Below, in pieces: positions 5,055 through 58,738 of a stretch of DNA of 64,000 bases. Location: IMG/VR virus record IMGVR_UViG_3300004806_000019, positions 1 through 64,000 of that record; one strand, 5' to 3'. Position 1 is the first letter of the stretch; the number at the start of each line of letters is the position of its first letter. The notes under the pieces were generated by a model. The model was given only the letters and a program-made list of their open reading frames with translations. It was not told the DNA's origin and did no database searches. This DNA is from a virus. The position numbers were made by a program, and so were the translations under genes.

Positions 5055-5059
5055 CTAAA

Positions 5060-20072: not shown

Positions 20073-21662
20073 TTGTTGGGATTGGTTGAGACGATGAAAC
20101 TGCTTAAAAGACTAGAGAAGGAGGAATTGGATGCTCTTCAGGAGGAGGAGCGTATTGCGTTGGCGGCGAGGGCTGATTGGTTGGGAAGGGCAGATTCGCC
20201 GGATCGGAAGGGCAAGCAGCGTCTTCCTGGTGGTGATTGGACGATACTTTTGGTTAGGGCGGGAAGAGGGTTTGGCAAGACGGAGATGTTAGTACAGGCG
20301 GGGTGGTGGGACTGTTACGAGTTTCCGGGTTTGATTGTACATGCTTTGGCACCGACGCAGAGTGACGTTCGTGGGACATTGTTTGAGGGTCCGGTTGGTT
20401 TCTGCAATGTTGTACCGAAGGAGTTATTGCTTGGGTGTAGTTTAGACAAGGCATACAACAAGAGCACCCATGAGTTGAGGTTTAAGAACGGGAGTTTGAT
20501 TAGGGGGTTTAGCACGACGGAGCAGGCCAATCGGTTGCGTGGTCCTCAGTGTAATTTGATGTTGGGTGATGAGTTAGCGGCTTGGGATGTACCTGCGGGA
20601 AATTTGGAGACGGCATTTAACGTTAGTATGTTTGGTGTTCGGTTGCCTTATCCGAAGGGTTTGAACGGTGAGTTTTTGCCTGCGAGGGCTGTTTTGGGTA
20701 CGACGCCTAGACCTATTGGCTTCCTGAAGAGGTTAGAGAGGCGTGACGATGTTAAGGTTATTACGGGGAGTAGTTTTGAGAACATCAATAATTTGAGTGG
20801 TGCGTATCGCGCTCAGATTATGAATTTGGCTGGGACGAAAATTGGGAAGCAGGAGATTGAGGGGTTATACGTTGATGAGGAGAATGACCAGAGTATTTTC
20901 AAGCGGGGTTGGTTTCGGTTATGGCCGTGTGAGAAGAAGTTGCCTGAGTTTAGTTTTGTGATGGAGGTTTATGACACGGCTTTTACGGAGGAGACGTTTG
21001 ACAGGAAGCGTCAGGAGAGTGACCCGACTGCTTGTTTGATATTGGGGGTATTTAACATTAATGCGGCGTTTACGGAGAGTGAGCGTCGTCAGATGAATGT
21101 TCGTGCGAAGTACGGTGTTGTTATTTGCGATGCTTGGGCGGAGCGGTTGGGTTTTCCTGAGTTGATGGACAGGGCGAGGAAGCAGCATCGTCTGAAGTGG
21201 GGGGCGCAGGGAAAGCGGAGTGACATAGTCCTCATTGAAGAGAAGGGTTCGGGGATTTCGTTACGTCAGAGCTTGGGGAAGCACGGTGTACCGACATGGC
21301 CTTATAATCCGGGGCGGCAGAGTAAGTTAATACGGGCTAACGCGATTAGTCCGATTGTGGCGCAGGGAATGGTGTTTGTTCCTGAATCGATGCGCCCGGA
21401 GAGGAAGGGTTTGCCTAGAGATTGGGTTGAGCCTTTTTTGGAACAGGTCTGTGCATATTACGGTCCTGGCACTACCGAGCATGATGACTATGTGGACGTT
21501 CTGAGTTCTGGTCTTTTATACCTTCGGAACAGAAGTATGCTCGAGTCTACCACTGAGAATAAGTATTTAGATATGGATGAAAAAAGGGAACAAGATGAAC
21601 GCAAAGCTCAACAAATCTATTACAACCAAAAGTCCTCTAGCAGAGGTAATCCCTACGGCTGA
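20073..21662 (+). CDS. terL: terminase large subunit
   Basis: AGRGFGKT Walker A, LRGPQ, GDELAAW Walker B, TTPRP, YDTAF, IEEKGSG, HDDYVD nuclease motif; start may be ATG 20094. Confidence 0.95.
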   Translation: MLGLVETMKLLKRLEKEELDALQEEERIALAARADWLGRADSPDRKGKQRLPGGDWTILLVRAGRGFGKTEMLVQAGWWDCYEFPGLIVHALAPTQSDVRGTLFEGPVGFCNVVPKELLLGCSLDKAYNKSTHELRFKNGSLIRGFSTTEQANRLRGPQCNLMLGDELAAWDVPAGNLETAFNVSMFGVRLPYPKGLNGEFLPARAVLGTTPRPIGFLKRLERRDDVKVITGSSFENINNLSGAYRAQIMNLAGTKIGKQEIEGLYVDEENDQSIFKRGWFRLWPCEKKLPEFSFVMEVYDTAFTEETFDRKRQESDPTACLILGVFNINAAFTESERRQMNVRAKYGVVICDAWAERLGFPELMDRARKQHRLKWGAQGKRSDIVLIEEKGSGISLRQSLGKHGVPTWPYNPGRQSKLIRANAISPIVAQGMVFVPESMRPERKGLPRDWVEPFLEQVCAYYGPGTTEHDDYVDVLSSGLLYLRNRSMLESTTENKYLDMDEKREQDERKAQQIYYNQKSSSRGNPYG

Positions 21663-22452: not shown

Positions 22453-25053
22453 TTGCGAAGGACACCCGTCTTGGCTGATGACAAGAACCCCATTCCACCT
22501 GATCGCCGCGCTCCTACCGGAAGTCCAGATGACCCCGTCTACCAAAAGACAGGAATGGATTCCGGCGTAGATGTCGGAGAGTATATGTCCGTCGATACAA
22601 GCGAAGACGGGCCGGAAATCATCGATAGCCCTGACGGGGGCGCCTTCGTCGTAATCGGAGAGGCAAAGGAATCAAACCCACCAGACCTGGAGTTCTACGC
22701 AAACCTCGCGGAAACACTCCCTGAAGACATCATGTCTAAACTCGCTTCCGACCTCCTGAAGAAGATTGAGAATGACAAAGAGTCCAGAAAGAAACGCGAC
22801 GAACTCTATGAAGAGGGACTGCGGAGAACAGGTCTAGGAAAAGACGCCCCCGGAGGCGCCGAGTTCGACGGAGCCTCTAAAGTCGTCCACCCAATGATGA
22901 CTGAAGCCTGCATAGACTATTGCGCCCGTATTATGAAGGAAATCTACCCCGTCGCAGGGCCTGTAAGAGAACGCCTCATTGGCGCCCCTACACAGGAAAA
23001 AGCCGATAGAGCCAAGCGCAAAGTCGAGCATATGAACTATCAGTTCACAACACAGATCAAAGAAGCTCGGGGTGTGCTGGAACAAACCTTTACTCAAACC
23101 CCGCTCTCAGGATCCGAATATATCCTCCTCTATCAGGATCACAGACTGAAACGCCCAAGAATGGAATGTATGCCCTCCGATAAGGTCTACATCCCAATCG
23201 CAGCAGCAGACTTCTATTCAGCAAATAGAAAGACGTGGGAAGAAAACCTGACCGACGTGGACTTCAAACAACGCGTCAACTCAGGTATGTACCGTGATCT
23301 GGAGTTGGGGAAATCAGACACAACACCAGAACCAAGTAAGGCCGAAGCCGCCAATATGAAAATCGAAGGTATGGAGGATACCGGAGAGAATATCGATGGA
23401 GAAAGAACCCTCTATACCTCTATGACCTATGTCGATGTCACAGAGGATATGGCTGACGAACTCGACGTGGAAGAAGCAGGGGAACTCTACCCGTACCTGA
23501 TCACAATTGATAAGACGACAAAGAAAGTCTTGGCCATCTATCGTGATTGGGAGAAAAACGATGAGGCAAGAGAACCAATCGAACACCTATTCGAGTTCGG
23601 ATTCATCCCATGGAGAGGAGCATACTCAATCGGGTTTGCACAAATTATTGGAGGACTTTCTGCTGCGGCTACTGGTGCTCTTCGTGCTCTACTCGATTCT
23701 GCTCATGCTAATAACGCTGTCACAGCCTTCGTCCTCAAAGGGTCTGGAATTTCGGGACAGTCTTCTCGTCCTCAAATCGGTGAACTCATCGAGATCGACG
23801 CAGGACTAGAAACAGACGATATCCGTAAACGGGTAATGCCCCCACCATTCAATCAGCCGTCACCCGTTCTGTTCCAGCTTCTAGGACTCCTCGTCTCCGC
23901 CGCTCAAGGCGTCGTCCGTACAACCATGGACGAAAACGCAACCAATATGAACTCACAGGTTCCCGTTGGAACCCAACTGTCCAGAGTGGAAGAAGGGCTG
24001 GTCGTCTTCTCACATATCCACGGACGCGCTCATGCCGCCTTCAATAGACTGATAAACGGACTCCATAGACTGAACCGACTCTACCTCCCCGAAACTCTCA
24101 GGGTGGACAGAGAAGGAAAGGAACTCATGGTCCGTAGATCTGACTATGATGGCCCCATCGACGCACAGCCCGTATCAGACCCGACACTCTATTCCGATCA
24201 GCAACGCTTCATGCAGATCACGGCTATCGAACAAGCCGCCGCTATGTTCCCGCAACTCTATAATATTCGGGAGATACAAAAGCGAAAGCTGAAGCTGTGG
24301 AAAGTTCCTGACCCCGATGCTCTCTTGAAGGATGAGCCTAAAGCAACCGAGATGAATGCCATTGCAGAAAACCTCGCAATGTCACTTGGAAAACCCGTGG
24401 TCGCCTTTCCAGAACAGGATCACCTCGCTCATCTGAAGTGCATCCTAGACTTCATTCAAAACCCCGTGCTGGGCGCAAACCCACTCATTGCACCCAAATA
24501 TCTCCCAATGGCATTGCAACATGCAGTCGAGCATATCGTGTTCTTCTATGTTAAACATGCCGTCGATACCGTGGAAAGCGCAGCAGGGGTTAAATCAATA
24601 ACCGAACTGATGAGCAATGATACCGGAGTAAAAGCGGAGTTCGATAAACTCCTGGCTAACGCCTCAACTGATGTCATGGGCGATATCACGCAAATCCTCC
24701 AACAGTACATGCCCGTCCTGCAACAGGCGCAGCAGATGATGCAGTCCTTTATGCCCAAACCCCCCATGGATCCGGCAGAGGCTGCACTCCAGGCACAACA
24801 GATGGAGACACAAAGACGTTCCGCCGCCGATCAGGCAGAGAACCAGATCGAACAACAACGCGTGGCTATCGAACAGCAAAACGCGCAAATCAATGCTCTC
24901 AAAGTGCAAAATGCAGAAAAATCAGCTACAATTACCGCTTTGACAAAGCTAAAAACTACGCAGATGGATAACGCTACCGCCAGACAATCTATTGTAGATA
25001 AAGCGATGGCAGGACAACAAAACCATATGGTCAATGGTGAAGGCTTGAAATAG
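22453..25053 (+). CDS. portal protein (podovirus-type head-tail connector)
   Basis: 866 aa directly after terL; HPMMTEAC, NYQF, LRALLDSAH, QPSPVLFQLL, QDHLAH and a long Gln-rich C-terminal coiled coil; likely start TTG 22471. Confidence 0.85.
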   Translation: MRRTPVLADDKNPIPPDRRAPTGSPDDPVYQKTGMDSGVDVGEYMSVDTSEDGPEIIDSPDGGAFVVIGEAKESNPPDLEFYANLAETLPEDIMSKLASDLLKKIENDKESRKKRDELYEEGLRRTGLGKDAPGGAEFDGASKVVHPMMTEACIDYCARIMKEIYPVAGPVRERLIGAPTQEKADRAKRKVEHMNYQFTTQIKEARGVLEQTFTQTPLSGSEYILLYQDHRLKRPRMECMPSDKVYIPIAAADFYSANRKTWEENLTDVDFKQRVNSGMYRDLELGKSDTTPEPSKAEAANMKIEGMEDTGENIDGERTLYTSMTYVDVTEDMADELDVEEAGELYPYLITIDKTTKKVLAIYRDWEKNDEAREPIEHLFEFGFIPWRGAYSIGFAQIIGGLSAAATGALRALLDSAHANNAVTAFVLKGSGISGQSSRPQIGELIEIDAGLETDDIRKRVMPPPFNQPSPVLFQLLGLLVSAAQGVVRTTMDENATNMNSQVPVGTQLSRVEEGLVVFSHIHGRAHAAFNRLINGLHRLNRLYLPETLRVDREGKELMVRRSDYDGPIDAQPVSDPTLYSDQQRFMQITAIEQAAAMFPQLYNIREIQKRKLKLWKVPDPDALLKDEPKATEMNAIAENLAMSLGKPVVAFPEQDHLAHLKCILDFIQNPVLGANPLIAPKYLPMALQHAVEHIVFFYVKHAVDTVESAAGVKSITELMSNDTGVKAEFDKLLANASTDVMGDITQILQQYMPVLQQAQQMMQSFMPKPPMDPAEAALQAQQMETQRRSAADQAENQIEQQRVAIEQQNAQINALKVQNAEKSATITALTKLKTTQMDNATARQSIVDKAMAGQQNHMVNGEGLK

Positions 25054-46716: not shown

Positions 46717-47289
46717 ATGCCAAGGTACATCTCCACACAAGGTCTTTCCCCTATAGCCATTGGCATATGTGGGAGGTGTTCGAGAAAATTCCCGCTTGCG
46801 GATCTGACGGAAGATGGAAACATTCCTGGGTTGTTAGTATGTCTTGAAGATTGGGATCGTATAGATCCGTGGAGATTGCCAGCTAGAGAGACAGAGGATA
46901 TCTCTCTTCAGAATCCCAGACCTGACGTATCACTTAGTGTCGGACCTATGAATGTCGCTATTAACCCAATGCAGCTTGTGTTAGAGGCTGACAATATGGG
47001 TAATACGGTTGAGACGAATGATACTCTTCAAGAGATCGGTTTTGGCAATTCAGTTTCTACAATTTATCCATCAACTCCATGGTTGGCAAACACGGTATAT
47101 TCAGAAGGTCAGCAAGTTACGCCAACCATAGCTACGGGGCTAACTGCTGCTGGTCAAAACATCTATATTTATGTATGTTTGTATGCCGGAACATCGGGGG
47201 TATCTGCGCCTAATTGGCCACCGAATGATGGCGCGTTGATCATTGATAATACCGTTCTTTGGAAAAATGCGGGGCTATATTTGCCATGA
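46717..47289 (+). CDS. zinc-binding neck-region protein with C-terminal carbohydrate-binding-like extension
   Basis: ICGRCSRKF...LLVCLEDWD..DPWRLP...PRPD; then W.ANT.Y..G...Y.C..AGTSG...P.WP. Confidence 0.7.
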   Translation: MPRYISTQGLSPIAIGICGRCSRKFPLADLTEDGNIPGLLVCLEDWDRIDPWRLPARETEDISLQNPRPDVSLSVGPMNVAINPMQLVLEADNMGNTVETNDTLQEIGFGNSVSTIYPSTPWLANTVYSEGQQVTPTIATGLTAAGQNIYIYVCLYAGTSGVSAPNWPPNDGALIIDNTVLWKNAGLYLP

Positions 47290-49025
47290 CATCGCCTGTT
47301 TTTATAAGCGCATTGCCAGCAGCGACTTCATGGGGGAGCGGTGATTATACGTTAGTTTCACAACAGGGCGGGATAACTAAGAAGATTGGCATAAGTGCCA
47401 TATTCACCGTTGGTACACCTGGATATACGCCAAGCGGATCTAATGCCGCACAATTCACCGGAAACTCTAATAGCTATTATCAGATATCAATTCAGAACAC
47501 GAACACAGGAACTTCTGCATCCTCAGACTTCGTGGCCACTTCTGACACTGGTAACGATGTAACTCATTATGCTGATTTTGGGATTAACAATAGTATCGGT
47601 GGCACGACGCCATTTCCCAATCCATATTCCGGATATCTCTATGTCACAGACTCTGAATTGGATTTCGGTGTTTTAGGTAATGCCGGGGTTATTAATTTCT
47701 ACGCAACCGGGGGAATGACTGCTCCTTATTATGTCGGGTCGATTAATTCTACCGGGCTTAATAATATGGCGATTGGTAATGCAACGCCATCCACAGGGAA
47801 ATTCACGACTCTTTCTGCATCTGGGAATGTTACGGGTAGCCAGCTTGTTTCAACGATCTCTGGTCAGCCGCCGCTGGTTGTTGGTTCTACCTCACAAGTT
47901 GCAAACTTAAATGCTCAATATCTTGGCGGATATCTTCCGTCGTCATTTGCCAACGTCACGCTTCCAAACACATGGATGCAAACGCAGACCTTTGCAGATG
48001 GCGGGGCTTGGAGTTCGACGGGGATACTTACGACCTATGCAGATATAGGTAACATGGGGACAGAAGGATCAAGCATCCTTCTAAATGGCGCGACTTATAC
48101 TGCCGTCCTTAAAGCCTCTGATATTGGGGCGATGAATCCTGTTCAAGAGATTCTGCATCGTCATTCGACTTCGTTAGAACCTATTTTCATGGGTGCTCGG
48201 AGTAACTCAGATACATCGGCTCATGCGAATGTAACGAATGGACAGAATGTTCTGACGTTTATGGGATCTGGGTATGCTGGAACTAACGGATATGAGCAAT
48301 TTGCCAGCATAAACTTTGCTGTATCCAGTACGGGATCTATCAGCAATTCGTCATCTCCTGGCGCGATTAAGTTCAATACGACGCCAAATGGCAATAACTT
48401 CCCTGTGACGGCGGTAACGATAGACCAAGATCAAAGCGTGACATTATCAGGGGCATTCAAACTTCCTGGTGGCACATTTTCTATTGGCGGCAACACGACC
48501 TTCTCTGGGGCATATACCTTTACTGGGACGGTGACGAATAATACGACGGTGACGTTCCCAACAACGGGGACATTGTTAACGACCACAGGCTCTGGTTCGT
48601 CTCTGACCTTCGGGACAGGTTCTCTGTCGCTTGCTGGAAACCTGACAACCTCTGGCGCTTACAACATCGGCTTTACGATGCCGGGGGCTTATACCTACAC
48701 GTTCCCATCATCGACAAGCACTCTTGCTATTCTTGGTGCTAACACGTTTACAGGGAAGCAAACGACGGTTGCCAGCGCCAGTGGTGCTGCTGGCCTTAAT
48801 CTTCCTCCTGGTGCGGCCCCATCGGCGCCAGTTAATGGCGACATTTGGACAACGACAGCGGGTATTTACGTACAGATAAATGGTGGTACAGTTGGCCCAC
48901 TTTCTGCGGGTGGAAGTGCTATCACTGCCCTTACCGGCGATGTGACAGCTTCTGGAAGTGGTAGTGTTGCGGCTGCATTGGCATTGACGCCACAGACAGA
49001 GTTAATATCGTTATGGTTGAGGTGA
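47286..49025 (+). CDS. putative tail fibre/spike protein
   Basis: S/T/G/N-rich, ASSDFVAT.D, V.ST.QVANLNA, P.APVNGDIW, LTGDVT modules. Confidence 0.7.
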   Translation: MTSPVFISALPAATSWGSGDYTLVSQQGGITKKIGISAIFTVGTPGYTPSGSNAAQFTGNSNSYYQISIQNTNTGTSASSDFVATSDTGNDVTHYADFGINNSIGGTTPFPNPYSGYLYVTDSELDFGVLGNAGVINFYATGGMTAPYYVGSINSTGLNNMAIGNATPSTGKFTTLSASGNVTGSQLVSTISGQPPLVVGSTSQVANLNAQYLGGYLPSSFANVTLPNTWMQTQTFADGGAWSSTGILTTYADIGNMGTEGSSILLNGATYTAVLKASDIGAMNPVQEILHRHSTSLEPIFMGARSNSDTSAHANVTNGQNVLTFMGSGYAGTNGYEQFASINFAVSSTGSISNSSSPGAIKFNTTPNGNNFPVTAVTIDQDQSVTLSGAFKLPGGTFSIGGNTTFSGAYTFTGTVTNNTTVTFPTTGTLLTTTGSGSSLTFGTGSLSLAGNLTTSGAYNIGFTMPGAYTYTFPSSTSTLAILGANTFTGKQTTVASASGAAGLNLPPGAAPSAPVNGDIWTTTAGIYVQINGGTVGPLSAGGSAITALTGDVTASGSGSVAAALALTPQTELISLWLR

Positions 49026-49029
49026 TAGC

Positions 49030-49383
49030 ATGGCTTCTTTAACTAAGATTGTTTTAAGTGGCGCGACTTACGGGGCGCCGATTCCTGTTGCGGGAACAAC
49101 GATAACATCGCCTACGACGATCCACACTTCGATTAATACGACAACTGCGGGGTTGGGTGATGAGGTCGTTCTCTACTGTGCAAACGTCGATACCGTTTCG
49201 CATACGTTGACGCTTGGAATCGGTGGGACGGTGACGGCTAACTTGGCTTATTTCATCGTTGCAGCGAATACAACGGCCCAAGTTCTTCCGGGGCATCTGC
49301 TTCTAAATGCACAGATTTTATATGCCGTGTGTGACGTGACAAATAAAATGAATGTGTTTGGCTACTGCATTAGGTCTTCGTGA
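49030..49383 (+). CDS. small tail-associated protein
   Basis: LSGATYG.PI.V, TTIHT, DEV.LY..N. Confidence 0.7.
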   Translation: MASLTKIVLSGATYGAPIPVAGTTITSPTTIHTSINTTTAGLGDEVVLYCANVDTVSHTLTLGIGGTVTANLAYFIVAANTTAQVLPGHLLLNAQILYAVCDVTNKMNVFGYCIRSS

Positions 49384-49454
49384 GTCATTATGGACGAACT
49401 CTCTCTACAATATGCGGCATCACGCCTTTATAGCAAACAATATGGGGGTTTGCT

Positions 49455-50114
49455 ATGGCTACTAGCGTAACCTACAATACTCTGGTTCAGGACGTTCAGG
49501 CATATCTGGAGCGTGGCGCATCCTCTACGACTGATGCAACGGTTACGGCGCAGATCCCAAGGCTTATCAACGCAGCAGAGCGCAAGCTGGCTCAAATCCT
49601 CAAGCTTCTAGGTCAGATTGAGGTTTTATCTGACGTAACAGGACTCACTCCGGGGAATCCCGTTATTCCAAAGCCTGACAGGTGGCGCCAGACTGTATCT
49701 ATGAATTATGGGGCAAGCTCGGATTCTAACTTTAGAACGCCCTTGTTTCCTAGAAGCTATGAATATTGCAGAACATATTGGCCGGATGACTCCCTGACTT
49801 CTCCGCCAAAGTTTTACGCTGACTATGGGTATACATCGTGGCTTATCGTCCCGACGCCTGATGTCACCTACCCCTTGGAGATCACTTGCTATATGCAGCC
49901 TCCTTTGTTGGATGCGAATAACCAATCTAACTTTTGGACGATATATTGCCCGAATGCTCTCCTTTATGGGACACTGGTTGAGGCAATGCCCTTCCTGAAG
50001 AATGATGAACGTATTCCTGTTTGGGAAAATATGTATAAGGCGGAGATCGCCACATTAAGCGGTCAGGATCTGCAACGGCAAATGGACCGGGCATCAGAGC
50101 GGAGGACCGTCTAA
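49455..50114 (+). CDS. tail tubular/adaptor protein (T7 gp11/P22 gp4-like role)
   Basis: TYNTL..DV.AYLER, IP..IN.AE, PKFYA, PTPD..Y, LLYGTLVEA.PFLK. Confidence 0.75.
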   Translation: MATSVTYNTLVQDVQAYLERGASSTTDATVTAQIPRLINAAERKLAQILKLLGQIEVLSDVTGLTPGNPVIPKPDRWRQTVSMNYGASSDSNFRTPLFPRSYEYCRTYWPDDSLTSPPKFYADYGYTSWLIVPTPDVTYPLEITCYMQPPLLDANNQSNFWTIYCPNALLYGTLVEAMPFLKNDERIPVWENMYKAEIATLSGQDLQRQMDRASERRTV

Positions 50115-50984
50115 ATGGCTGGGGGAAATTTTACAAATGTCTTCGGCGGTCAGGTAGTCCGACCTTCTCAATTGAGTTATCAGTCTATAACGATGTCGAG
50201 CAATACGACCTTGTTATGGCCTACAGAGAGTTTGGAAGGCGCGGTTTATGTTGCCTCTGAAATCGATGTGACTGCAACGGCAACGCATTTGGCTTTGCTA
50301 ATGCCGAGTGCTTTGATTGCAGCAACGGGACCGGCGACGACGATAACGAATGTCGGAACGAATACCTTCTCTGTTGCAGATAATACGGGGAACACAATCG
50401 TTAACATCGCTAGTGGTCAGGCTTGGATTATCACTCTCACGTCTAATACGACACAAGCGGGGACGTGGAGAACTTTACAGTTAGGATCAACGACGACTTC
50501 GGCGGTGGCTTCTCAGTTGGCCGATGGGATTACGACTCAAGCCACAACACTGAACACGCTTCAGGTAGCTGAGTTTGTAAATACGTATTCCAATAGTGCC
50601 TTGCTGACGGCGGCAGTAAGGGGTGGTTGTTCGGTATTGGCTTCTGGTTCTGCTGCATCGACTTTTCAGATGGATTTGATTTTTAACCTTGGGGCTGGCT
50701 GGTATCAGGACATCGTAAATTTGAGTGGCAATACGTTGACTTTGTCGGGGTCATCGGGGCAGTTATTAAACTCGGCGCCGACCTTTGCGATGAGTGCTGG
50801 ATCTTCAGCTAGGGTAATTGCGGGGGCATCATCGTTTACGGTTATCAACAATGTGAATGTGTCTGCGTTTGGTGTGGTAAATTCTGTTTTAGGGGGCAGC
50901 GGTATTCTTGCTTCAGGATCTACCGTGATAACTGTAAGTGTGATTGATAACTACATGGAGTTGGCGCCGATATGGTGGCGCTAG
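50115..50984 (+). CDS. putative tail fibre-associated protein
   Basis: FTNVFGG..V.PS..SY, L.WP; S/T-rich; C-terminal PIWWR resembles SLWLR of 47286-49025. Confidence 0.7.
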   Translation: MAGGNFTNVFGGQVVRPSQLSYQSITMSSNTTLLWPTESLEGAVYVASEIDVTATATHLALLMPSALIAATGPATTITNVGTNTFSVADNTGNTIVNIASGQAWIITLTSNTTQAGTWRTLQLGSTTTSAVASQLADGITTQATTLNTLQVAEFVNTYSNSALLTAAVRGGCSVLASGSAASTFQMDLIFNLGAGWYQDIVNLSGNTLTLSGSSGQLLNSAPTFAMSAGSSARVIAGASSFTVINNVNVSAFGVVNSVLGGSGILASGSTVITVSVIDNYMELAPIWWR

Positions 50985-51008
50985 GATAGATAGATAAAGG
51001 TAACGGTT

Positions 51009-51395
51009 ATGAGTGATCGTCAGATAGGTCTGAATGTAGTCTTAGGACAACCGATAGCCAGCGTTGGCGTCAACGGTGTCGGCTACCTGAGCATTCCCCA
51101 GAACTCTCAGAACGCCGGTTATACCTGTGTCCTTGGTGACGCGGGGTATCACATCTATATGGCGACGGCGGGGACATTCACGATCCCGTCAAACGCGAGT
51201 GTGGCCTATCCGATTGGAACGGTGATTGCCTTCGTTAACCTGTCAGCATCCTCCAGCATCGCCATCACATCCGATACGATGTACCTGATGGGGTCTGGGT
51301 CTACCGGTACACGTACTCTAGCCCAATACGGCTGTGCGACGGCGCTAAAGACCGGCACAACCACATGGATCATCTCTGGTACAGGGTTAACTTGA
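51009..51395 (+). CDS. tail fibre distal/connector protein
   Basis: IPQNSQ...YT.VL.DAG, TIP.NASVAYPIGT, W.ISG.GLT. Confidence 0.7.
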   Translation: MSDRQIGLNVVLGQPIASVGVNGVGYLSIPQNSQNAGYTCVLGDAGYHIYMATAGTFTIPSNASVAYPIGTVIAFVNLSASSSIAITSDTMYLMGSGSTGTRTLAQYGCATALKTGTTTWIISGTGLT

Positions 51396-51396
51396 T

Positions 51397-54300
51397 ATGT
51401 CAGGGGTAACTTCCGCATTACTCTGGGGCGGCAAAGCACCGGCAGCAGTGGGTCTGTTGGCGTGGGGGAATAATTCTTATGGTCAGCTAGGTCTTGGGAA
51501 TACGACTTATTATTCAAGTCCTAAACAAGTTGGAGCGTTAACAAACTGGTCTAGCATTGTTGGTGGCGCCTATCATGGTGTTTCTATAAAGTCTGATGGC
51601 ACTCTATGGGCGTGGGGATTAAATCAATATGGTCAATTAGGTTTAGGAAATAGAACTTATTATTCCTCTCCAAAGCAAATCGGCGCTTTAACGAATTGGT
51701 CAAAAGTTGCTTGTGGCGGAAGGTTTACGACGGCCATTAAAACTGACGGAACCCTATGGACTTGGGGGTTTAATAATAATGGTCAACTTGGTTTAGGAAA
51801 TAGAACTTATTATTCTTCTCCAAAGCAAATCGGAGCTTTAACTAATTGGTTAAAAGTCGCTTGTGGGTACTATCACACAATAGCGATAAAAACAGACGGA
51901 ACACTATGGACTTGGGGACTAAATCAATATGGTCAGTTAGGTTTAGGAAATATCACGAATTATTCTTCTCCGAAACAAGTTGGATTATTAACAAACTGGT
52001 CCAGTTGCGCTGGAGGGCAATCTCATACAATTGCCATTAAAACAGATGGGACTCTATGGACTTGGGGGTGGAACATTTTTGGTCAATTAGGGCTTGGAAA
52101 CATTACGAATTATTCTTCTCCGAAACAAGTCGGCTTATTAACAAACTGGTCCAGTTGCGCTGGAGGGCATTATCATATAGTGGCAATTAAAACAGACGGC
52201 ACCTTGTGGTCCTGGGGAAGAAACAATTTTGGTCAATTAGGGCTTGGAAACATTACGAATTATTCTTCTCCGAAACAAGTCGGCTTATTAACAAACTGGT
52301 CTAGTTGCTCTGGAGGGCAATATCATACAGTTGCCATTAAAACAGATGGGACTCTATGGACTTGGGGGTGGAACATTTTTGGTCAGCTTGGTTTAGGAAA
52401 TATAACTTATTATTCCTCTCCAAAACAAGTTGGATCTCTTACTTCATGGGTAAAAGTCGCTTGTGGTTTTAACCAAACCCTCGCCATAGGCCGCCCCGTC
52501 CCCGTTGGCCTGATGTCGTGGGGGTATAATGGTTCTGGGCAGTTAGGTTTAGGAAATACGACTTATTATTCCAGTCCTAAAGCTGTGGGACAGTTGACGA
52601 ACTGGTCAAAAATAGCAACAGGTAATACTTTTGTAGCTATAAAAACTGATGGGACACTTTGGGTTGGGGGATGGAATAATAATGGTCAATTAGGGCTTGG
52701 AAACATCACTTATTATTCTTCGCCTAAACAGGTTGGGGCATTGACTAACTGGTCTAGTGTGGCTTGCGGTCAATCCTCTACGGCAGCAATTAAAACTGAC
52801 GGCACCTTGTGGTCCTGGGGAGGGAATCAATACGGTCAACTTGGTCTTGGAAATACCACAAGCTATTCAAGCCCCAAACAGGTAGGTGGTCTAACTAACT
52901 GGTTGGCTCTCGCTTGTGGTGAATACTTTGCTATTGCCACCAAGACTGATGGCACATTATGGGCGTGGGGGCAGAATAATAGCGGTCAGTTAGGTCTTGG
53001 GAACAGAACCCATTATTCTTCTCCTAAACAAATAGGCGCTTTAACAAATTGGTTAAGTGTTGCCTGTGGGAACTATTACGTTTTATCAATTAAGACTGAT
53101 GGATCTCTATGGGCTTGGGGTCAAAATAACTATGGTCAATTAGGGCTTGGAAATCAGACTTATTATTCTAGTCCCAAGCAAGTCGGTGGCCTGACGAATT
53201 GGTTAAAAGCTGTCCCTGGTGGTGGATACTTTGCTATTGCCACCAAGACTGATGGAACTTTATGGGCTTGGGGAAACAACCGATACGGCTCGTTAGGTCT
53301 TGGGAACATTACGAATTATTCTTCTCCAAAGCAAATCGGAGCTTTAACTAATTGGTTAAAAGTCGCTTGTGGGAGCTATCACGTTTTATCAATTAAGACT
53401 GATGGATCTCTATGGGCTTGGGGATTAAATAATTATGGTCAATTAGGGCTTGGAAACATTACGAATTACTCCTCCCCCAAGCAAGTCGGCTCCCTCACCA
53501 CATGGCAGAACGTCGCCTGCGGGCATTTTTCTGTCCTCGCCACGATAGTCCCCGTATCGCCGGGGCTGGCGGCTTGGGGGCAGAATAATTATGGTCAGCT
53601 AGGTCTTGGGAATCGGACTTATTACTCTTCGCCTAAACAGGTTGGAGCGTTAACTAACTGGTCTAGCATTGCTGGCGGCATCTCTCATGTTGTTTCTATA
53701 AAGTCTGATGGAACCTTGTGGGCGTGGGGGGCTAATAACAATGGTCAGCTAGGTCTTGGGAATCGGACTTATTATTCAAGTCCTAAACAAGTTGGCGTTT
53801 TAACGAATTGGTCAAAAGTCGCTTGTGGGTACCTTAGCACAATGGCGATAAAAACTGACGGAACCTTGTGGGCATGGGGTCAAAATGCCCTTGGACAATT
53901 AGGGCTTGGGACCATTACGAATTATTCTTCTCCAAAGCAAATCGGAGCTTTAACTAATTGGTTAAAAGTCGCTTGTGGGTACTATCACACAATAGCGATA
54001 AAAACAGACGGCACTTTATGGACTTGGGGGTATAACTACTATGGTCAGTTAGGTTTAGGAAATATAACTTATTATTCCTCTCCGAAACAAGTCGGCTTAT
54101 TAACAAACTGGTCCAGTTGCGCTGGATGGCAGTATTTTACAGTTGCCACCAAAACAGATGGCACTTTATGGACTTGGGGTCAAAATGCCTATGGTCAATT
54201 AGGGCTCGGAAACATTACGAATTATTCTTCTCCAAAGCAGGTTGGAGCGTTAACTAACTGGTCTAGCATTGCTGGCGGCATCTCTCATGTTGTTTCTATA

Positions 54301-54618
54301 AAGTCTGATGGAACCTTGTGGTCCTGGGGGTATAATAACTTAGGTCAGTTAGGTTTAGGGAATCGGACTTATTATTCAAGTCCTAAACAAGTTGGCGTTT
54401 TAACGAATTGGTCAAGCGTTGCTTGTGGCGGAAGGTTTACGACGACCATTAAAACTGACGGAACCTTGTGGGCATGGGGTCAAAATGCCTATGGTCAATT
54501 AGGGCTCGGAAACATTACGAATTATTCTTCTCCAAAGCAAATCGGAGCTTTAACTAATTGGTTAAAAGTCGCTTGTGGTGGATATACTACCATCGCCACC
54601 TTTGGGGTAATGACGTAA
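51397..54618 (+). CDS. RCC1/BLIP-II repeat protein, three 7-bladed beta-propellers (putative receptor-binding protein)
   Basis: 21 repeats of about 50 aa (LW.WG.N..GQLGLGN.T.YSSPKQVG.LTNW......H..AIKTDG), broken after repeats 7 and 14 by Pro linkers. Confidence 0.92.
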   Translation: MSGVTSALLWGGKAPAAVGLLAWGNNSYGQLGLGNTTYYSSPKQVGALTNWSSIVGGAYHGVSIKSDGTLWAWGLNQYGQLGLGNRTYYSSPKQIGALTNWSKVACGGRFTTAIKTDGTLWTWGFNNNGQLGLGNRTYYSSPKQIGALTNWLKVACGYYHTIAIKTDGTLWTWGLNQYGQLGLGNITNYSSPKQVGLLTNWSSCAGGQSHTIAIKTDGTLWTWGWNIFGQLGLGNITNYSSPKQVGLLTNWSSCAGGHYHIVAIKTDGTLWSWGRNNFGQLGLGNITNYSSPKQVGLLTNWSSCSGGQYHTVAIKTDGTLWTWGWNIFGQLGLGNITYYSSPKQVGSLTSWVKVACGFNQTLAIGRPVPVGLMSWGYNGSGQLGLGNTTYYSSPKAVGQLTNWSKIATGNTFVAIKTDGTLWVGGWNNNGQLGLGNITYYSSPKQVGALTNWSSVACGQSSTAAIKTDGTLWSWGGNQYGQLGLGNTTSYSSPKQVGGLTNWLALACGEYFAIATKTDGTLWAWGQNNSGQLGLGNRTHYSSPKQIGALTNWLSVACGNYYVLSIKTDGSLWAWGQNNYGQLGLGNQTYYSSPKQVGGLTNWLKAVPGGGYFAIATKTDGTLWAWGNNRYGSLGLGNITNYSSPKQIGALTNWLKVACGSYHVLSIKTDGSLWAWGLNNYGQLGLGNITNYSSPKQVGSLTTWQNVACGHFSVLATIVPVSPGLAAWGQNNYGQLGLGNRTYYSSPKQVGALTNWSSIAGGISHVVSIKSDGTLWAWGANNNGQLGLGNRTYYSSPKQVGVLTNWSKVACGYLSTMAIKTDGTLWAWGQNALGQLGLGTITNYSSPKQIGALTNWLKVACGYYHTIAIKTDGTLWTWGYNYYGQLGLGNITYYSSPKQVGLLTNWSSCAGWQYFTVATKTDGTLWTWGQNAYGQLGLGNITNYSSPKQVGALTNWSSIAGGISHVVSIKSDGTLWSWGYNNLGQLGLGNRTYYSSPKQVGVLTNWSSVACGGRFTTTIKTDGTLWAWGQNAYGQLGLGNITNYSSPKQIGALTNWLKVACGGYTTIATFGVMT

Positions 54619-54636
54619 TTCAACGAAGGAGTTTTT

Positions 54637-56412
54637 ATGAACAAGACACTGCATTTCCTTAGTGGTATCCCCAGAAGTGGGAGCACTGTGTTAGCCGCCA
54701 TTCTTAATCAAAACCCGCTAACCCATGTCTCTACCACCTCTGGCCTAGTACACGCCTTGGATGGGCTTGCGAATACGTGGCACTCAGGTCCACTTCTTGT
54801 AGACAAAGACCCGGATCATAAGCAGCTTTGCGCGGCTATGCGGGGCGTGATTGACAATTTCTACACCGATACCGACAAGCCCGTCATTATCGACAAGTCA
54901 AGAGGGTGGCCGATACCGATTATTATGGGGGCGATGACGCAAGTGCTTGGGAGAAAGCCTCGTATCATTGCAACGGTCAGGTCGATCCCAGATTGCGCGG
55001 CGTCTTTCATTCGGGTTGCTAAACCCCAAGATCTGGACAAGTTCATCGCTGACGGTCAGTTGATGGAGCATCTGAAGGCGGCTTACATCTCTCTGCAAGA
55101 GGGCTGGCAGGCTGCACCAGAGAACTTCCTGATTGTTGAATATGAAGACCTGTTGGCTGATCCGAAAGAGGTCTTGAACAGGGTCCATGCTTTCCTTGGG
55201 CTTCCTGACTTCACCTATGACTTTGAGAATATCGACGGGGAGCCTGTTAAGGAAGACGACGAGAACCTTCACGGCTATGCTGGGATGCACGACATTAAGC
55301 CGAAGCTGGAACACCAGCATAAGCAGCATCCGAGAGATGTCCTGAAGGAGCATTATGGGAGCTTCTGCCAGCCTGAGTTCTGGTTGGATAAGCCCAGGAC
55401 GATCCCTGACATCTCTGATCTTGACCTCCAGCTTGTGGCGTCACGGACAGGGGACTTTGAAGAGGGTTGGCGTCTGGCGCAGAAGATGGAACGGGAGATC
55501 CCGAATAACCATCGTGCGGCTTTCAACCGTGGCTGGTATGCGCTTCGACAGGGCAAGATCCAAGAGGGCTATAAGCTGATGGAGCGCGGCAGATATGTAC
55601 AAGTCTTTGGAGATCCGCCACCGGATGCGCCAACGAAGCCTTGGGACGGTCTGGCGAAGGGCATTGTGCTATTGAACCTTGAGCATGGGCTAGGTGATCA
55701 GATCCACCAGATCCGCTTTGCCAAGCATATTGCCAAACGGGCTGGTCGGTGCGTTGTGTCTTGCGCGGGTCAATTGGCGTCCTTGTTTGTGGATGTTGAG
55801 GGGGTTTCTGCTGTCGTCCAGAAAGAGGCCAACTTCGGTATCTACCATGACTTCTACGTCCAGGGGATGAGTGCAATCCTGCCGCTTGGGTTTGAACTGC
55901 CTGACATTACGGGTGAGGCTTATATCAGGAAGCCGAATGTCATTCGTGGCAAGAAGTTCCGCATTGGCCTGCGCTGGCTTGGTTCCACTCGCTTTGAGCC
56001 GGATCATGTGAAGAGGTTCCCCCATGAACTGCTGTTCAATGCGGTCAAGGACATTCCTGACGTTGAGTTCGTAAGCCTCCAGAGGGATGAGGGTGCCGAG
56101 CATCGCCCCTATTGGTGCCGTGAGGTTCCGCTTCAGTCTTGGGAGGATACGCGCAATGCTGTCGCCTCCTGTGACTTGGTGATTTCGTCCTGCACCTCTA
56201 TCTCTCACTTGTCAGCAGCGATGGGCGTTGAGACTTGGGTTATCACGCCAATCATGCCATACCACTTATATGCGCTTGATGGCGAGAAGACTCCTTACTA
56301 TGACCATATGCGCCTGTTCAGGCAGGAAGTGTTTGGGGAGTGGGAGCATCCCTTCATCAACATAAACAAACGACTGATGGAACGGTTCAGTTCCAAGATG
56401 GCAGCGGAATAG
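54637..56412 (+). CDS. sulfotransferase fused to a GT9-like glycosyltransferase
   Basis: 5'-PSB loop SGIPRSGSTVL, IDKSRGW, 3'-PB TVRS...CAAS, VEYEDL; then a TPR-like helix, EHGLGDQI, VSLQ, DLVISSCTSISHLSAAMG, TPYY..MRLFRQ. Confidence 0.88.
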   Translation: MNKTLHFLSGIPRSGSTVLAAILNQNPLTHVSTTSGLVHALDGLANTWHSGPLLVDKDPDHKQLCAAMRGVIDNFYTDTDKPVIIDKSRGWPIPIIMGAMTQVLGRKPRIIATVRSIPDCAASFIRVAKPQDLDKFIADGQLMEHLKAAYISLQEGWQAAPENFLIVEYEDLLADPKEVLNRVHAFLGLPDFTYDFENIDGEPVKEDDENLHGYAGMHDIKPKLEHQHKQHPRDVLKEHYGSFCQPEFWLDKPRTIPDISDLDLQLVASRTGDFEEGWRLAQKMEREIPNNHRAAFNRGWYALRQGKIQEGYKLMERGRYVQVFGDPPPDAPTKPWDGLAKGIVLLNLEHGLGDQIHQIRFAKHIAKRAGRCVVSCAGQLASLFVDVEGVSAVVQKEANFGIYHDFYVQGMSAILPLGFELPDITGEAYIRKPNVIRGKKFRIGLRWLGSTRFEPDHVKRFPHELLFNAVKDIPDVEFVSLQRDEGAEHRPYWCREVPLQSWEDTRNAVASCDLVISSCTSISHLSAAMGVETWVITPIMPYHLYALDGEKTPYYDHMRLFRQEVFGEWEHPFININKRLMERFSSKMAAE

Positions 56413-56421
56413 GAGAAGAAA

Positions 56422-56991
56422 ATGGGTTTGTGGGTTCAGGTTCAAAACAACCAAGTGACGGCTTGCATCGACACGCCTCCGGTCACGACGAACGATCCGA
56501 ATTGGAAACCGGCTATTGAGATCAAGCCAGCTTTGAAGCCCTATGTTGAGTATTACGGGCAGGCTGTTTTTGATACGACGCAGAACCCGGTTACGATCAC
56601 CTATCCGGTTCTTGAGTGGGATTCAACGACGGCTGCAAGGAATGAGGCTGACGCGAAAGCACAGGAAGCGAAGCAGGCTTATGCGTCTGCTATTGCGAAT
56701 GGTCTGATTATTACGTCTGCTTCGACGCCTGCGATCAATGGGACTTACGCTCTTGAAGATAGCGATATTGCTAACCTCAATGCAGAGGCAAGCTTCATCA
56801 GCAATTTCCAAGAGTTCACGACGATGAACACGAACGCCCTGCCGTGGATCACCATGACGGGCGTTGTGACCTTCCCGTCCCTGCCGTCGTTCATGTCGGT
56901 TGCTAAGGCTGTGGCTCAGTACGTCTCTGCCTGCAAGCTGGCGGCGAATGGCATTGGGACGTTCCCGGCTAACACGGTACAAGTGCCGTGA
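56422..56991 (+). CDS. tail fibre assembly/chaperone-like protein (DUF4376-like)
   Basis: N-terminal W.PA.E..P motif, then P.INGTYA and helical C-terminus; follows the fibre module. Confidence 0.55.
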   Translation: MGLWVQVQNNQVTACIDTPPVTTNDPNWKPAIEIKPALKPYVEYYGQAVFDTTQNPVTITYPVLEWDSTTAARNEADAKAQEAKQAYASAIANGLIITSASTPAINGTYALEDSDIANLNAEASFISNFQEFTTMNTNALPWITMTGVVTFPSLPSFMSVAKAVAQYVSACKLAANGIGTFPANTVQVP

Positions 56992-56999
56992 TAGAAAGG

Positions 57000-57140
57000 A
57001 TGCGAAAGAGGCTTGGCCTTCTGTTTGAGGAGCATAAGAAGCTGGAGGAAGAAATCCAGCTTCTCCTTGAACAGATAAAAGCTCTGGAGCATGAAGAGTA
57101 TTCCCGTCGTCATCAGCTTGATGAACTCTGCCCGGACTGA
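57000..57140 (+). CDS. small coiled-coil protein (not in ORF track)
   Basis: 46 aa MRKRLGLLFEEHKKLEEEIQLL...; fills the gap. Confidence 0.5.
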   Translation: MRKRLGLLFEEHKKLEEEIQLLLEQIKALEHEEYSRRHQLDELCPD

Positions 57141-57145
57141 AGATT

Positions 57146-58738
57146 ATGAAGCTTGGAAAACTGCCTGCCGTTGTTGATCCGAAAGTCCCGGTATTTTCCA
57201 GAGCTTGCACTCCTCCTGTCCCTCCGGTAACGGCTGATTGGTGTTCAAAGGTCGCAGACTGGCCTTTGGATAAGAATGACACGGTGGGGGACTGCACGAT
57301 TGCGGCGGCTCAACACTTGATCCAGGCATGGACGACTTATGCCGGGAACCCGGTGATAGTGTCTGAGGCTGACGTGTTAGCAGCGTATTCTGCGATCTCT
57401 GGATATAACGGGACGCCTGCGACGGACGTTGGGTGTGTTGAGTTATCGGTTCTGAAATATTGGCAGGCGACGGGGATTGGGGGCCATAAGATTAACTCGT
57501 TTGCGGCTCTTAACATTGCCAACCTGAATGAGATCAAGGCTGCGATTAATTGGTTCGGGGGAATTTATATCGGGGTGAGGTTGCCGATTTCGGCACAGAC
57601 GCAACCGGCTGTCTGGGATGTCGTTCCGGGTTCAACGGGGATACCTGGATCGTGGGGAGGACATGCTGTTTGTGTCCAGTCTTATGATGCGACAGGCATA
57701 ACCGTCATCTCGTGGGGCAAGACGATCAAGATGACGTGGGCTTTCTGGCTGGCCTATGTTGACGAGGCGTATGCGGTTGTTTCGACGGATTTCTTGAATG
57801 CACAGGGTGTTGATCCGCAAGGGTTGACGCTGGCTAACCTCATCGCTGACGAGGCTCTCCTTGCTGCTAACGTGTCAGGACCGAGTGATGCCCTGGTGAC
57901 GTTTATCAATGCGGCGACTGCGCCTTCAAGTGGCGTGGGTGCTTTATTGGCTCCTAACCTTCTTCTGACTGCCGCGCCTGAGATGGCTCTTGGCGGGATT
58001 AACTTCCCTATCTTGGCGGGTGGGACTCAGGTTGATGGCGTGACGGCGGTTCAGGCTGGGACGAGGTATGCGCTTGGGTTGCTGTCCACTCCCTATATGT
58101 GCAGCGGATATCTTGGGTACATGTCAGGATGGAGCGGCGGTCAGGCGACGATAGCTTATGGGAACAACCAGTTTGCGAGTCAGGTGTTTGCGCCTGACTT
58201 TACGACGACGGTTCTTGCTAATAGCGCGGGTGGTCTGGTGATCGTTGGTACGTCTATAGTTGGCGTGATGATCACGACAAGTTCGGCTTATATCTTTAGC
58301 TCTGCCGACATTGACCAGATAGAGAGTTTCATCACGACCCTGACGGGGGCGGCTCCTGCGATAGTCAGGTTATATGGCGGGATCTTAGGGCGTTACCCGA
58401 CGATAGCTGAGAACCAGTGGTACACGAAGAACCTGTATCTTCCTGCCTATAACGCGTCACCAGGATCTGCGTTGCATGTGCTGGGAAACAATCTTGGTAT
58501 TCTTTACTGCTTTACGCACTCGCCAGAGTTCATGGGTGGGAGTAGTGGTTATGGCAAAGACCCAGTAGCCTATGTGACATATTTGTACCAGAATGCCTTG
58601 GGGCGCTCTCCTTCTACTAGTGAGCTTACTTGGTATGTGGCACAATTAAAAAGCCGTGATCTCTGGGATGTTGTCGCACTGAACATCACTCAGAGCGATG
58701 AGGCCAGAGCTTACAACGGTGTTTGGAATCAGCAATAA
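57146..58738 (+). CDS. papain-like cysteine peptidase with C-terminal DUF4214-like domain
   Basis: NDTVGDCTIA (Cys), WGGHAV...YD (His), VISWG; C-terminal RLYGGILGR.P, SPEF, YVTYLYQNALGRSP...L.WY. Confidence 0.75.
   Translation: MKLGKLPAVVDPKVPVFSRACTPPVPPVTADWCSKVADWPLDKNDTVGDCTIAAAQHLIQAWTTYAGNPVIVSEADVLAAYSAISGYNGTPATDVGCVELSVLKYWQATGIGGHKINSFAALNIANLNEIKAAINWFGGIYIGVRLPISAQTQPAVWDVVPGSTGIPGSWGGHAVCVQSYDATGITVISWGKTIKMTWAFWLAYVDEAYAVVSTDFLNAQGVDPQGLTLANLIADEALLAANVSGPSDALVTFINAATAPSSGVGALLAPNLLLTAAPEMALGGINFPILAGGTQVDGVTAVQAGTRYALGLLSTPYMCSGYLGYMSGWSGGQATIAYGNNQFASQVFAPDFTTTVLANSAGGLVIVGTSIVGVMITTSSAYIFSSADIDQIESFITTLTGAAPAIVRLYGGILGRYPTIAENQWYTKNLYLPAYNASPGSALHVLGNNLGILYCFTHSPEFMGGSSGYGKDPVAYVTYLYQNALGRSPSTSELTWYVAQLKSRDLWDVVALNITQSDEARAYNGVWNQQ

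Follow-up and report, generated by a model that had tools for sequence, protein, structure and literature searches.

We describe a gene for three RCC1-type propellers, located at positions 51,397 to 54,618 of a stretch of viral DNA of 64,000 nucleotides (the window), which corresponds to positions 1 to 64,000 of IMG/VR record IMGVR_UViG_3300004806_000019. Judging from the sequence, the 21 repeat units –or blades– of this gene are a recombinational mosaic that no single tree describes, and not a plain tandem-duplication series. The mosaic very probably arose via recombination between blades. This is repeat shuffling of the concerted-evolution type, a known route to binding diversity and not a new kind of diversity machine.

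Anatomy of the gene and mosaicism of its blades

At the level of gene anatomy, Pfam RCC1 (PF00415) matched 21 stretches of the open reading frame (ORF) 51397-54618 (E 4.2e-264, 853.7 bits, cut-off 21.7), and the RCC1-like domain PF25390 matched it as well (E 1.4e-289, 959.4 bits, cut-off 150). These 21 stretches are all of the PF00415 matches in the whole 84,223-bp genome, and each of them is over the cut-off. The anchor motif G[QS]LGLG is present in 21 copies with a spacing of 50 amino acids, except for spacings of 52, 49, 51, and 52 that represent two in-frame propeller junctions and two single-residue indels. Blades 1, 8, and 15 begin with AVGL, PVGL, and SPGL in place of DGTLW, and blades 7, 14, and 21 finish with GRPV, IVPV, and FGVMT. 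Thus, the deviant first and last blades delimit three closed propellers of seven blades each, and the 3 x 7 RCC1 repeats of about 150 bp that a previous sequence-only reading had proposed are confirmed by both the Pfam matches and the anchor register. That reading had also described GC-rich junctions between propellers (GC, guanine plus cytosine). When measured in 60-nt windows, the two junctions and the N-terminus have a GC content of 0.55-0.65, against a gene mean of 0.437. The gene and its parts are the following:

51397 to 54618, forward strand: RCC1 triple-propeller gene, 1073 amino acids, 21 blades (ORF, PF00415 x21, PF25390, blade register)
51397 to 52500, forward strand: propeller 1, with the 16-residue N-terminus and blades 1-7 (blade table, AlphaFold2 on residues 1-370, Foldseek)
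52501 to 53556, forward strand: propeller 2, blades 8-14, with a two-blade duplication of 303 nt, blades 10-11 and 12-13 (blade table, repeats)
53557 to 54618, forward strand: propeller 3, blades 15-21, the most tract-rich; it groups as sister to propeller 1 in the family tree (blade table, tree, painting)
52450 to 52539, forward strand: GC-rich in-frame junction of propellers 1 and 2 (GC 0.58-0.65)
53470 to 53619, forward strand: GC-rich in-frame junction of propellers 2 and 3 (GC 0.58-0.63)

The GC content at third codon positions (GC3) of the RCC1 gene is 0.37, compared to 0.60 and 0.62 in the adjacent genes (51009-51395 and 54637-56412) and 0.42-0.62 in nine further genes of the phage. RCC1 genes of related loci present GC3 values of about 0.15-0.5 irrespective of their flanks; low GC3 was weighed as a sign of foreign origin and not adopted as one.

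Distant blades share identical DNA tracts, as had been noticed from the sequence alone: the three tract pairs pointed out there presented no mismatches in 81, 55, and 89 nt, and their maximal extension reached 84, 58, and 91 nt. Exact direct tracts of at least 35 nt number 16 (91, 84, 75, 68, 67, 66, 65, 59, 58, 58, 55, 48, 43, 39, 35, and 35 nt). The core of the 91-nt tract at 51809-51899 occurs in blades 13 and 21 too. The tracts and patches that matter for the argument are listed here, located by exact-repeat search unless sequence comparison is stated:

51809 to 51899, forward strand: 91-nt tract running across blades 3 and 4, with an identical copy at 53921-54011 (blades 17 and 18)
53921 to 54011, forward strand: second copy of the 91-nt tract, running across blades 17 and 18
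53638 to 53721, forward strand: 84-nt tract on the 3' side of blade 15, with an identical copy at 54238-54321 (blade 19)
54238 to 54321, forward strand: partner copy of the 84-nt tract, blade 19, with a 2-nt overlap with the 65-nt tract of blades 19 and 21
52077 to 52151, forward strand: 75-nt tract, blade 5, identical to 52227-52301 (blade 6)
53305 to 53372, forward strand: 68-nt tract, blade 13, identical to 54511-54578 (blade 21)
54175 to 54239, forward strand: 65-nt tract on the 5' side of blade 19, with an identical copy at 54475-54539 (blade 21)
53758 to 53815, forward strand: 58-nt tract, blade 16, identical to 54358-54415 (blade 20)
54418 to 54444, forward strand: 27-nt GGRFTT loop tract, blade 20, identical to 51706-51732 (blade 2; sequence comparison)
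53722 to 53757, forward strand: loop-1 patch of blade 16, with 10 differences from the blade 20 patch 54322-54357 (sequence comparison)

Painting the blades in register with exact tracts of at least 18 nt covered 54% of the RCC1 gene. Tracts of 18-26 nt may come from conservation alone, and the argument rests on the long ones. Several blades were painted as chimeras: blade 19 combines blades 18, 21, and 15 (the tracts cover 147 of its 150 nt), blade 17 combines blades 21, 13, and 3, and blade 5 combines blades 7, 6, and 4. Blade 20 was painted from blades 16 and 2, with 58 and 27 identical nt, which bears out the earlier proposal that it joins a blade 16-like 5' part to the GGRFTT loop of blade 2. 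At the protein level, there are 17 variants of loop 1, eight of loop 2, and 19 of loop 3; each recurring variant pairs with different partner loops, and the 21 blades display 21 different triples.

Statistical tests pointed to the same mosaic. In a GENECONV-like test, nine blade pairs presented 40-64 consecutive identical polymorphic sites, a length that none of 300 site-order permutations reached (the permuted global maximum had a mean of 23 and a highest value of 39). A PHI-like statistic was computed with three window sizes, and for each of them no permutation out of 1000 attained the value of the real data. The trees of three contiguous segments of the blade alignment rejected one another (approximately unbiased (AU) test, p <=3e-6; differences in log-likelihood (lnL) of 97-195). 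Because tree tests favour the tree built from the same data, we added eight random-column controls: the mean cross-penalty was 124 lnL for contiguous segments and 32 lnL (highest mean 40) for the controls. The incongruent per-segment trees expected by the sequence-only reading were therefore observed, well beyond the controls, and together with the permutations, the PHI-like statistic, and the painted chimeras they uphold its proposal that intragenic recombination mixes the blades.

Nucleotide identity between blades ranges from 51 to 89%, and the synonymous difference between them is about 0.70, alike in scaffold and variable codons. Since the perfect tracts lie on this background, they are recent copies placed on old blades. 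The ratio of nonsynonymous to synonymous differences (pN/pS) came to 0.15 for the scaffold and to 0.71 for the variable columns, with pS saturated. Given the high synonymous difference and the ratio of 0.15, the scaffold is held by selection at the protein level and not by homogenisation of the DNA.

Predicted fold, variable face, and possible function

For propeller 1 (residues 1-370), AlphaFold2 gave a model with 28 strands, a predicted local distance difference test (pLDDT) score of 94.6, and a predicted template modelling (pTM) score of 0.91, using an input alignment of 98 propellers from the window and related loci. A Foldseek search with this model matched UVR8 (E 1.9e-38, template modelling (TM) score 0.85, root-mean-square deviation 1.3-1.6 A, 35-36% identity), and further matches included the RCC1-like domains (RLDs) of HERC1/2, RPGR, and RCC1. 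According to the model, the fold is a seven-bladed RCC1-like beta-propeller.

The most variable alignment columns are 9, 11, and 12 (in WG-x-N-x-x-G), 20 and 22 (in GN-x-T-x), and 43-47 (after A-C/G-G). The sequence-only reading had limited the variation to these three places. It is indeed concentrated there and is not confined to them, since columns 6, 31, 36, 38, and 39 vary as well, with an entropy of 1.4-2.1 bits. When a consensus is drawn from the 98 family propellers, or from 24 three-propeller proteins, the main variable columns again stand as 'x'.

DSSP assigned four strands per repeat to the model. Columns 9, 11, and 12 come right after strand 2, columns 20 and 22 right before strand 3, and columns 43-45 in the turn that links strand 4 with the strand 1 that follows; by topology, the conserved K-T-D-G turn and column 31 sit on the opposite face. 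In a phmmer alignment to UVR8, columns 9/11 correspond to W94/D96, column 22 to D107, and columns 43/44 to W285/R286, and this numbering agrees with the mutant names in titles of PDB entries. We take these UVR8 residues to be those that form its dimer and partner interface. Beta-meander topology and the UVR8 alignment together suggest that the main variable columns share one propeller face, which supports what had been predicted for the variable residues.

Regarding function, the RCC1 gene sits in the tail module, with a head-tail adaptor upstream, PHROG tail-type neighbours, and conserved synteny. In its relatives, the first RCC1 gene has at its N-terminus a segment of the 'minor tail protein' type (phrog_6977, 2e-11), and the matches in BFVD include tail-fibre proteins of the Pseudomonas phages PollyC (rank 30) and Littlefix (rank 29). 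An RCC1-domain protein of phage GAP32 is reported to be present in virions, as detected by mass spectrometry (PMC5259590). We consider the chances that the protein is a tail-associated adhesin to be about even. Gene position is what suggests a receptor-binding role, and the variable face would then be the binding surface.

An N-x-S/T sequon is present at the GN-x-T place in 20 of the 21 blades. In total, the RCC1 protein contains 44 sequons, compared to a mean of 16 and a highest value of 27 in 500 shuffles, for which no significance test applies because the repeats are non-independent. Among relatives, 230 of 482 blades have a sequon at the same place. Together with the conserved neighbour, a sulfotransferase fusion, these sequons raise the question of whether the propellers are modified.

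Genome setting, relatives, and recombination genes

The source record is linear, with 84,223 bp and a CheckV completeness estimate of 100%, and the window is its first 64 kb. It encodes tailed-phage genes, such as a large terminase (20073-21662) and a portal (22453-25053), and a helicase and a primase in the early region. Words from the gene region were present in 13 freshwater or lake metagenome runs, eight of which contained at least half of the sampled words. The host virus of the gene is an uncultured freshwater tailed phage of 84 kb. Around the RCC1 gene, whose start lies 1.3 kb downstream of the SU10-type adaptor, we found these neighbours:

49455 to 50114, forward strand: head-tail adaptor, SU10 adaptor family (PF24175, E 1.3e-25), syntenic in 15 related loci
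51009 to 51395, forward strand: 128-amino acid ORF, separated by 1 nt from the start codon of the RCC1 gene; weakly similar to the C-terminal end of a minor tail protein in PHROG (phrog_8780, E 6.3e-8)
54637 to 56412, forward strand: 591-amino acid protein with an N-terminal sulfotransferase domain (Pfam PF13469, PF00685)
56422 to 56991, forward strand: DUF4376 protein, placed after the RCC1 cluster in 30 related loci too (Pfam, synteny)

In the last 20 or so residues of the 128-amino acid ORF, there is a faint likeness to the part of a blade that runs from strand 4 to strand 2, at non-significant BLASTP E-values of 1.1-3.6.

The 591-amino acid sulfotransferase fusion has 41 relatives in IMG/VR with 64-72% amino acid identity, and it is far better conserved than the RCC1 genes that surround it (at most 63%). 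As located with a blade hidden Markov model, it lies in relatives almost always between single-propeller RCC1 genes. Typically, RCC1 genes of about 470 and 380 amino acids lie upstream of the enzyme gene and one of about 410 amino acids downstream, after which a DUF4376-like ORF is found. In this phage, the enzyme gene has three fused propellers on its upstream side and none on its downstream side. In the family tree, the propellers of relatives mostly cluster by position; in the window, propellers 1 and 3 are sisters, with loci L013-L015 as their nearest relatives.

The closest IMG/VR relative of the RCC1 protein has at most 63% amino acid identity, in search sets that may omit records near this genome. 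In a protein collection that holds at least 7778 multi-propeller RCC1 proteins at E <= 1e-30, identity was at most 53% among the 120 matches listed. For the upstream 289-amino acid protein, it was at most 38% in IMG/VR and in JGI metagenome contigs. The exact 36-nt junction pattern had no matches in IMG/VR, and a nucleotide search of a phage collection with positions 44000-51400 gave no match.

The longest exact match of the RCC1 gene to any of 79 related loci is 30 nt. Thus, as far as the sampled relatives show, the long tracts arose within this genome. Exact inter-blade tracts of at least 35 nt are absent in 31 of 55 distinct related loci, and the tract-rich loci include L009/L010 (38 tracts, up to 90 nt), L021 (23), L023 (41, up to 101 nt), and L024 (22). 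Some of these loci were sampled repeatedly: L009 is identical to L011, and L024 to L025 and L026. Between L009 and L010, 5 nt are different over 16.8 kb; every one of these falls in an RCC1 ORF, and three lie within 20 nt (4816, 4826, and 4835). The differences of L018 from L019/L020 are mostly outside the RCC1 genes. Loci L009-L012 (2444-11129) are one phage from four samples, with 51 blades in four adjacent ORFs (20 + 7 + 17 + 7). Giant RCC1 frames were also seen in viral contigs, of 3324 amino acids with 31 blades in L016, where the frame runs off the locus, and of 2510 amino acids with 28 blades in L029.

We searched the 84,223-bp record for dedicated diversity machinery. The earlier suggestion that the blades diversify free of reverse transcriptase is borne out as to the enzyme: PF00078 had no matches at E <= 0.1, and adenine bias is absent, with 54% of the 339 differences between 13 close blade pairs involving A on either side, in both directions. 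No RCC1 copy lies outside the gene to act as a template. A diversity-generating retroelement was rejected on these three grounds. Known invertible-segment or shufflon tail-fibre switches, such as Mu Gin, P1 Cin, and R64 Rci, have inverted repeats at the borders of the exchangeable segments and a site-specific recombinase. An invertible-segment or shufflon switch was rejected too, as there are no inverted repeat pairs of at least 18 nt in 50000-57500 and no matches in the genome to resolvase/invertase PF00239 or tyrosine recombinase/integrase PF00589. With reverse transcriptase, invertase, integrase, and inverted repeats absent, general homologous recombination remains as the mechanism. The phage encodes a recombination module:

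1378 to 1770, reverse strand: NinB/Orf recombination mediator (phrog_72, E 7.2e-26)
1767 to 2102, reverse strand: HNH-like small ORF in the recombination module
2099 to 2950, reverse strand: 282-amino acid ORF between NinB and YqaJ, with no Pfam or PHROG match
2954 to 3886, reverse strand: YqaJ-type recombination exonuclease (PF09588, E 1.6e-14)

The sequence-only reading had credited the phage with an exonuclease, an annealase, and NinB. YqaJ and NinB are present and no annealase was recognised in Pfam and PHROG; the 282-amino acid ORF could be a candidate for it. We infer that these phage genes, or those of the host, might do the copying. The early region also encodes a VRR-NUC nuclease (4982-5431), an MT-A70 methyltransferase (5896-6465), and a protein with a phosphoadenosine phosphosulfate (PAPS) reductase domain (7419-8351).

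For population data, we used Logan contigs (from a graph with k=31) of four lake runs, X1 to X4, without counting the uncovered parts in X2-X4. Pieces in X1, X2, and X4 reproduce the record with no differences, and contig depth is about 2-fold higher over the shared tracts. One X3 contig (53439-53815, depth 4.3) presents 10 changes at 53722-53757, and all 10 are the letters of blade 20. It joins unique sequence of blades 14-15 to the loop-1 patch of blade 20, and it may be a real variant or a low-coverage path of the graph. Besides, three joints seen in single contigs (depth 3-5) skip 450, 440, and 2179 nt. A further contig in X1, X2, and X4 follows the gene to 53447 and continues with the same 30 other letters in all three runs; in X2, a stretch of 34 other letters leads back into the gene at 51526. 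As it shares words with blades 14 and 1, a related RCC1 sequence or variant would co-occur in these lakes.

Explanations weighed and their meaning

In the explanation that we prefer, three tandem seven-bladed RCC1-like propellers are fused in frame within the tail module. Their 21 blades are old paralogues with a protein scaffold kept constant by purifying selection, and most of the differences fall in three loops, which would lie on the same face in each propeller. Homologous recombination of the ordinary kind from blade to blade, as short-tract gene conversion and unequal exchange, would have copied tracts of about 25-91 nt with breakpoints in the conserved scaffold, and recent copying would have produced chimeric blades with new combinations of loops 1, 2, and 3. 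Because each propeller requires seven blades, such events would act as replacement and not as expansion. Taken as a whole, we hold this explanation to be moderately probable.

Several observations weigh against it. The blades are far less homogenised than classical concerted-evolution arrays, with a mean nucleotide identity in the 60s per cent. The pN/pS of 0.71 in the loop columns does not demonstrate positive selection, because synonymous sites are saturated and recombination also invalidates tree-based tests. The full-length AlphaFold2 model is weak (pLDDT 70, pTM 0.44, junctions below 50), and column 31, on the opposite face, varies with an entropy of 2.14 bits. An N-terminal anchor domain is lacking: blade 1 begins after just 16 residues, residues 1-13 have a pLDDT below 50, and the 128-amino acid ORF is unlike the N-terminal segment of relatives (BLASTP E >=1.1), which leaves virion attachment unexplained. 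The conserved neighbour is an enzyme, which gives room for a role other than adhesin. Logan contigs break at the repeated tracts and none spans the RCC1 gene, so the blade order is unproven. Moreover, the sequence-only reading had called the conversion 'ongoing', a claim that was not supported: 107 of 118 contigs in the four lake runs are at least 99% alike (36/37, 28/30, 24/28, and 19/23), the one variant is ambiguous, and the RCC1 genes of near-identical relatives stay the same from sample to sample, to within 0-5 differences over 16.8 kb.

Concerning the origin of the mosaic, plain tandem duplication followed by divergence through point mutations, with no gene conversion, fits the Tandem Repeats Finder periods of 150, 300, and 303 nt and the colinear likeness of blades 15-17 to 19-21 (offset 600), 10-11 to 12-13, and 1-4 to 15-18 (73-84%). 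We regard it as highly improbable, given that best partner blades lie at offsets of 1, 2, 4, 14, and 18 blades, that the segment trees reject one another well beyond the random-column controls, and that the colinear copies are broken by 10 differences in 36 nt between fully identical flanks of 84 and 58 nt. For some patches the match is in a third blade, as for the blade 20 loop in blade 2, and the blade count stays at exactly seven per propeller. An assembly artefact, in which wrong paths through the repeat graph gave a false blade order and chimeric blades, deserves attention in a metagenome-assembled record whose interleaved repeat families permit alternative paths; no contig spans the gene, and the X3 contig is an alternative continuation after the 84-nt tract. 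Against it, a mis-join needs k-1 shared letters, and the donors switch with a 2-nt overlap in blade 19 (54238/54239) and a 2-nt gap in blade 20 (54415/54418), so the assembler would not have been able to make the chimeric blades. All exact repeats are also at most 91 nt, below the read length that we assume for the 2017 runs, the frame is clean and open with exactly 3 x 7 blades and proper first and last blades, independent runs (X2, X4) reproduce pieces with no differences, and the depth of about 2-fold fits real multi-copy tracts. An artefact of the whole is thus very unlikely, while blocks may have been mis-ordered at the longest tracts. Import of the tracts from RCC1 genes of co-occurring phages, by recombination between genomes, is scarcely more probable than such an artefact. 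The contig that diverges at 53447 in X1, X2, and X4 does show that blades 14 and 1 have words of 31 nt or more in common with other lake sequence, but both copies of every long tract lie in the RCC1 gene itself, its longest exact match to the 79 related loci is 30 nt, and no relative exceeds 63% amino acid identity in IMG/VR or 53% among the 120 matches listed from the protein collection.

As for what the recombination does, an active and selected diversification would involve frequent blade exchange by a Red-like module of the phage and loop variants that change host range. The perfect tracts of up to 91 nt on a synonymous background of about 0.70 must be very recent, the 21 blades keep 21 different loop triples, YqaJ exonuclease and NinB are encoded, and many long tracts exist in other phage RCC1 arrays (L009, L021, L023, and L024). 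The X3 contig with the blade 20 patch in blade 16 and the joints of 450, 440, and 2179 nt also speak for it, but they are single contigs of depth 3-5 from a k=31 graph and possible coverage artefacts. Since the X1 and X2 pieces have no differences, repeatedly sampled relatives show no RCC1 hypervariation, 31 of the 55 distinct related loci lack tracts of at least 35 nt, and no annealase was recognised, we judge this reading improbable. If it were true, a multivalent tail adhesin would exist in lake populations in many versions that differ in their loop combinations, the X3 contig being one of them, and host range would be plastic without reverse transcriptase or invertase. More weight, though still the lesser share, goes to the proposal that the protein is not a receptor binder. 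It might instead be a substrate or partner of the sulfotransferase fusion, a nonspecific capsid or tail decoration, or an intracellular effector, with loops under relaxed constraint. RCC1 genes adjoin the sulfotransferase fusion in 41 IMG/VR loci, the sequon is in 20 of 21 blades, no anchor domain is present, and the pN/pS of 0.71 in variable columns is not above 1. What makes us doubt it is the position in the tail module, the minor-tail-like N-terminus of the first RCC1 gene in relatives, the existence of tail-fibre proteins of the same fold, and the variation of the same columns across the 98 family propellers, as expected of a surface in use.

Returning to recombination between blades as the preferred explanation, the closest parallel in kind that we compared is that of the WD40 repeats of the NWD/HNWD genes (het-d, het-e) of Podospora anserina. 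Paoletti, Saupe and Clave 2007 (PMC1805685) describe repeats exchanged within and between genes, few variable residues on the interaction surface, and diversity by repeat reshuffling. The phage gene shares the exchange of DNA among propeller blades within an array, the few variable residues per repeat on what would be the interaction surface, and the lack of a dedicated enzyme. It differs in being from a phage, in having RCC1 and not WD40 repeats, in the absence of repeat-induced point mutation (RIP), and in a much lower internal nucleotide conservation (51-89%, pS about 0.70); selection and repeat-number polymorphism are not established for it. With concerted-evolution arrays in general, it shares exchanged tracts with incongruent segment histories and not the high internal conservation. 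In the literature searched, no paper described such blade mosaicism for phage RCC1 genes.

Among phage systems, the gp38 adhesins of T4-superfamily phages have conserved glycine-rich motifs that flank hypervariable segments and serve as recombination sites for swapping binding loops; their receptor binding is proven, and the exchange is between phages. The logic is alike, with variable loops exchanged at conserved motifs, but the fold is unrelated, and here the exchange is between repeats of one gene whose receptor binding is not proven. Diversity-generating retroelements also target a phage binding protein and limit variation to few surface positions, and differ from this gene by their reverse transcriptase, template repeat outside the gene, and adenine-specific pattern. 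The tail fibres of PollyC and Littlefix, annotated as those of short-tailed phages, have an RCC1-like propeller too. However, theirs is a single propeller behind a T7-type N-terminal fibre domain, identity is 22-25%, and their function comes from annotation.

Arabidopsis UVR8, the HERC1/HERC2 RLDs, RPGR, and human RCC1 share the seven-bladed propeller, whereas the phage protein has three propellers in one chain and no sign of guanine nucleotide exchange factor (GEF) or photoreceptor function. The tryptophan and arginine positions of UVR8 correspond to hypervariable columns in it. A further comparison is with IMG/VR loci L013-L015, L018, and L030-L070, which present the same order of adaptor, RCC1 genes, sulfotransferase fusion, and DUF4376 and the same constant scaffold with variable columns, but with separate single-propeller genes instead of one fused ORF.

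RCC1 propeller genes are very common in uncultured phages and adjoin tail genes in 41 related IMG/VR loci, with a role that is unmeasured. Shuffling of blades can create binding diversity; for this gene, no frequent, programmed, or adaptive shuffling has been demonstrated. On the present data, the locus is a well-documented case of ordinary repeat evolution, and a clean example of how an array evolves, with a selected scaffold, variable loops on one face, and recent short-tract copying. If the shuffling were frequent in populations, it would let environmental phages change their host range in a simple way, with no enzyme dedicated to it.

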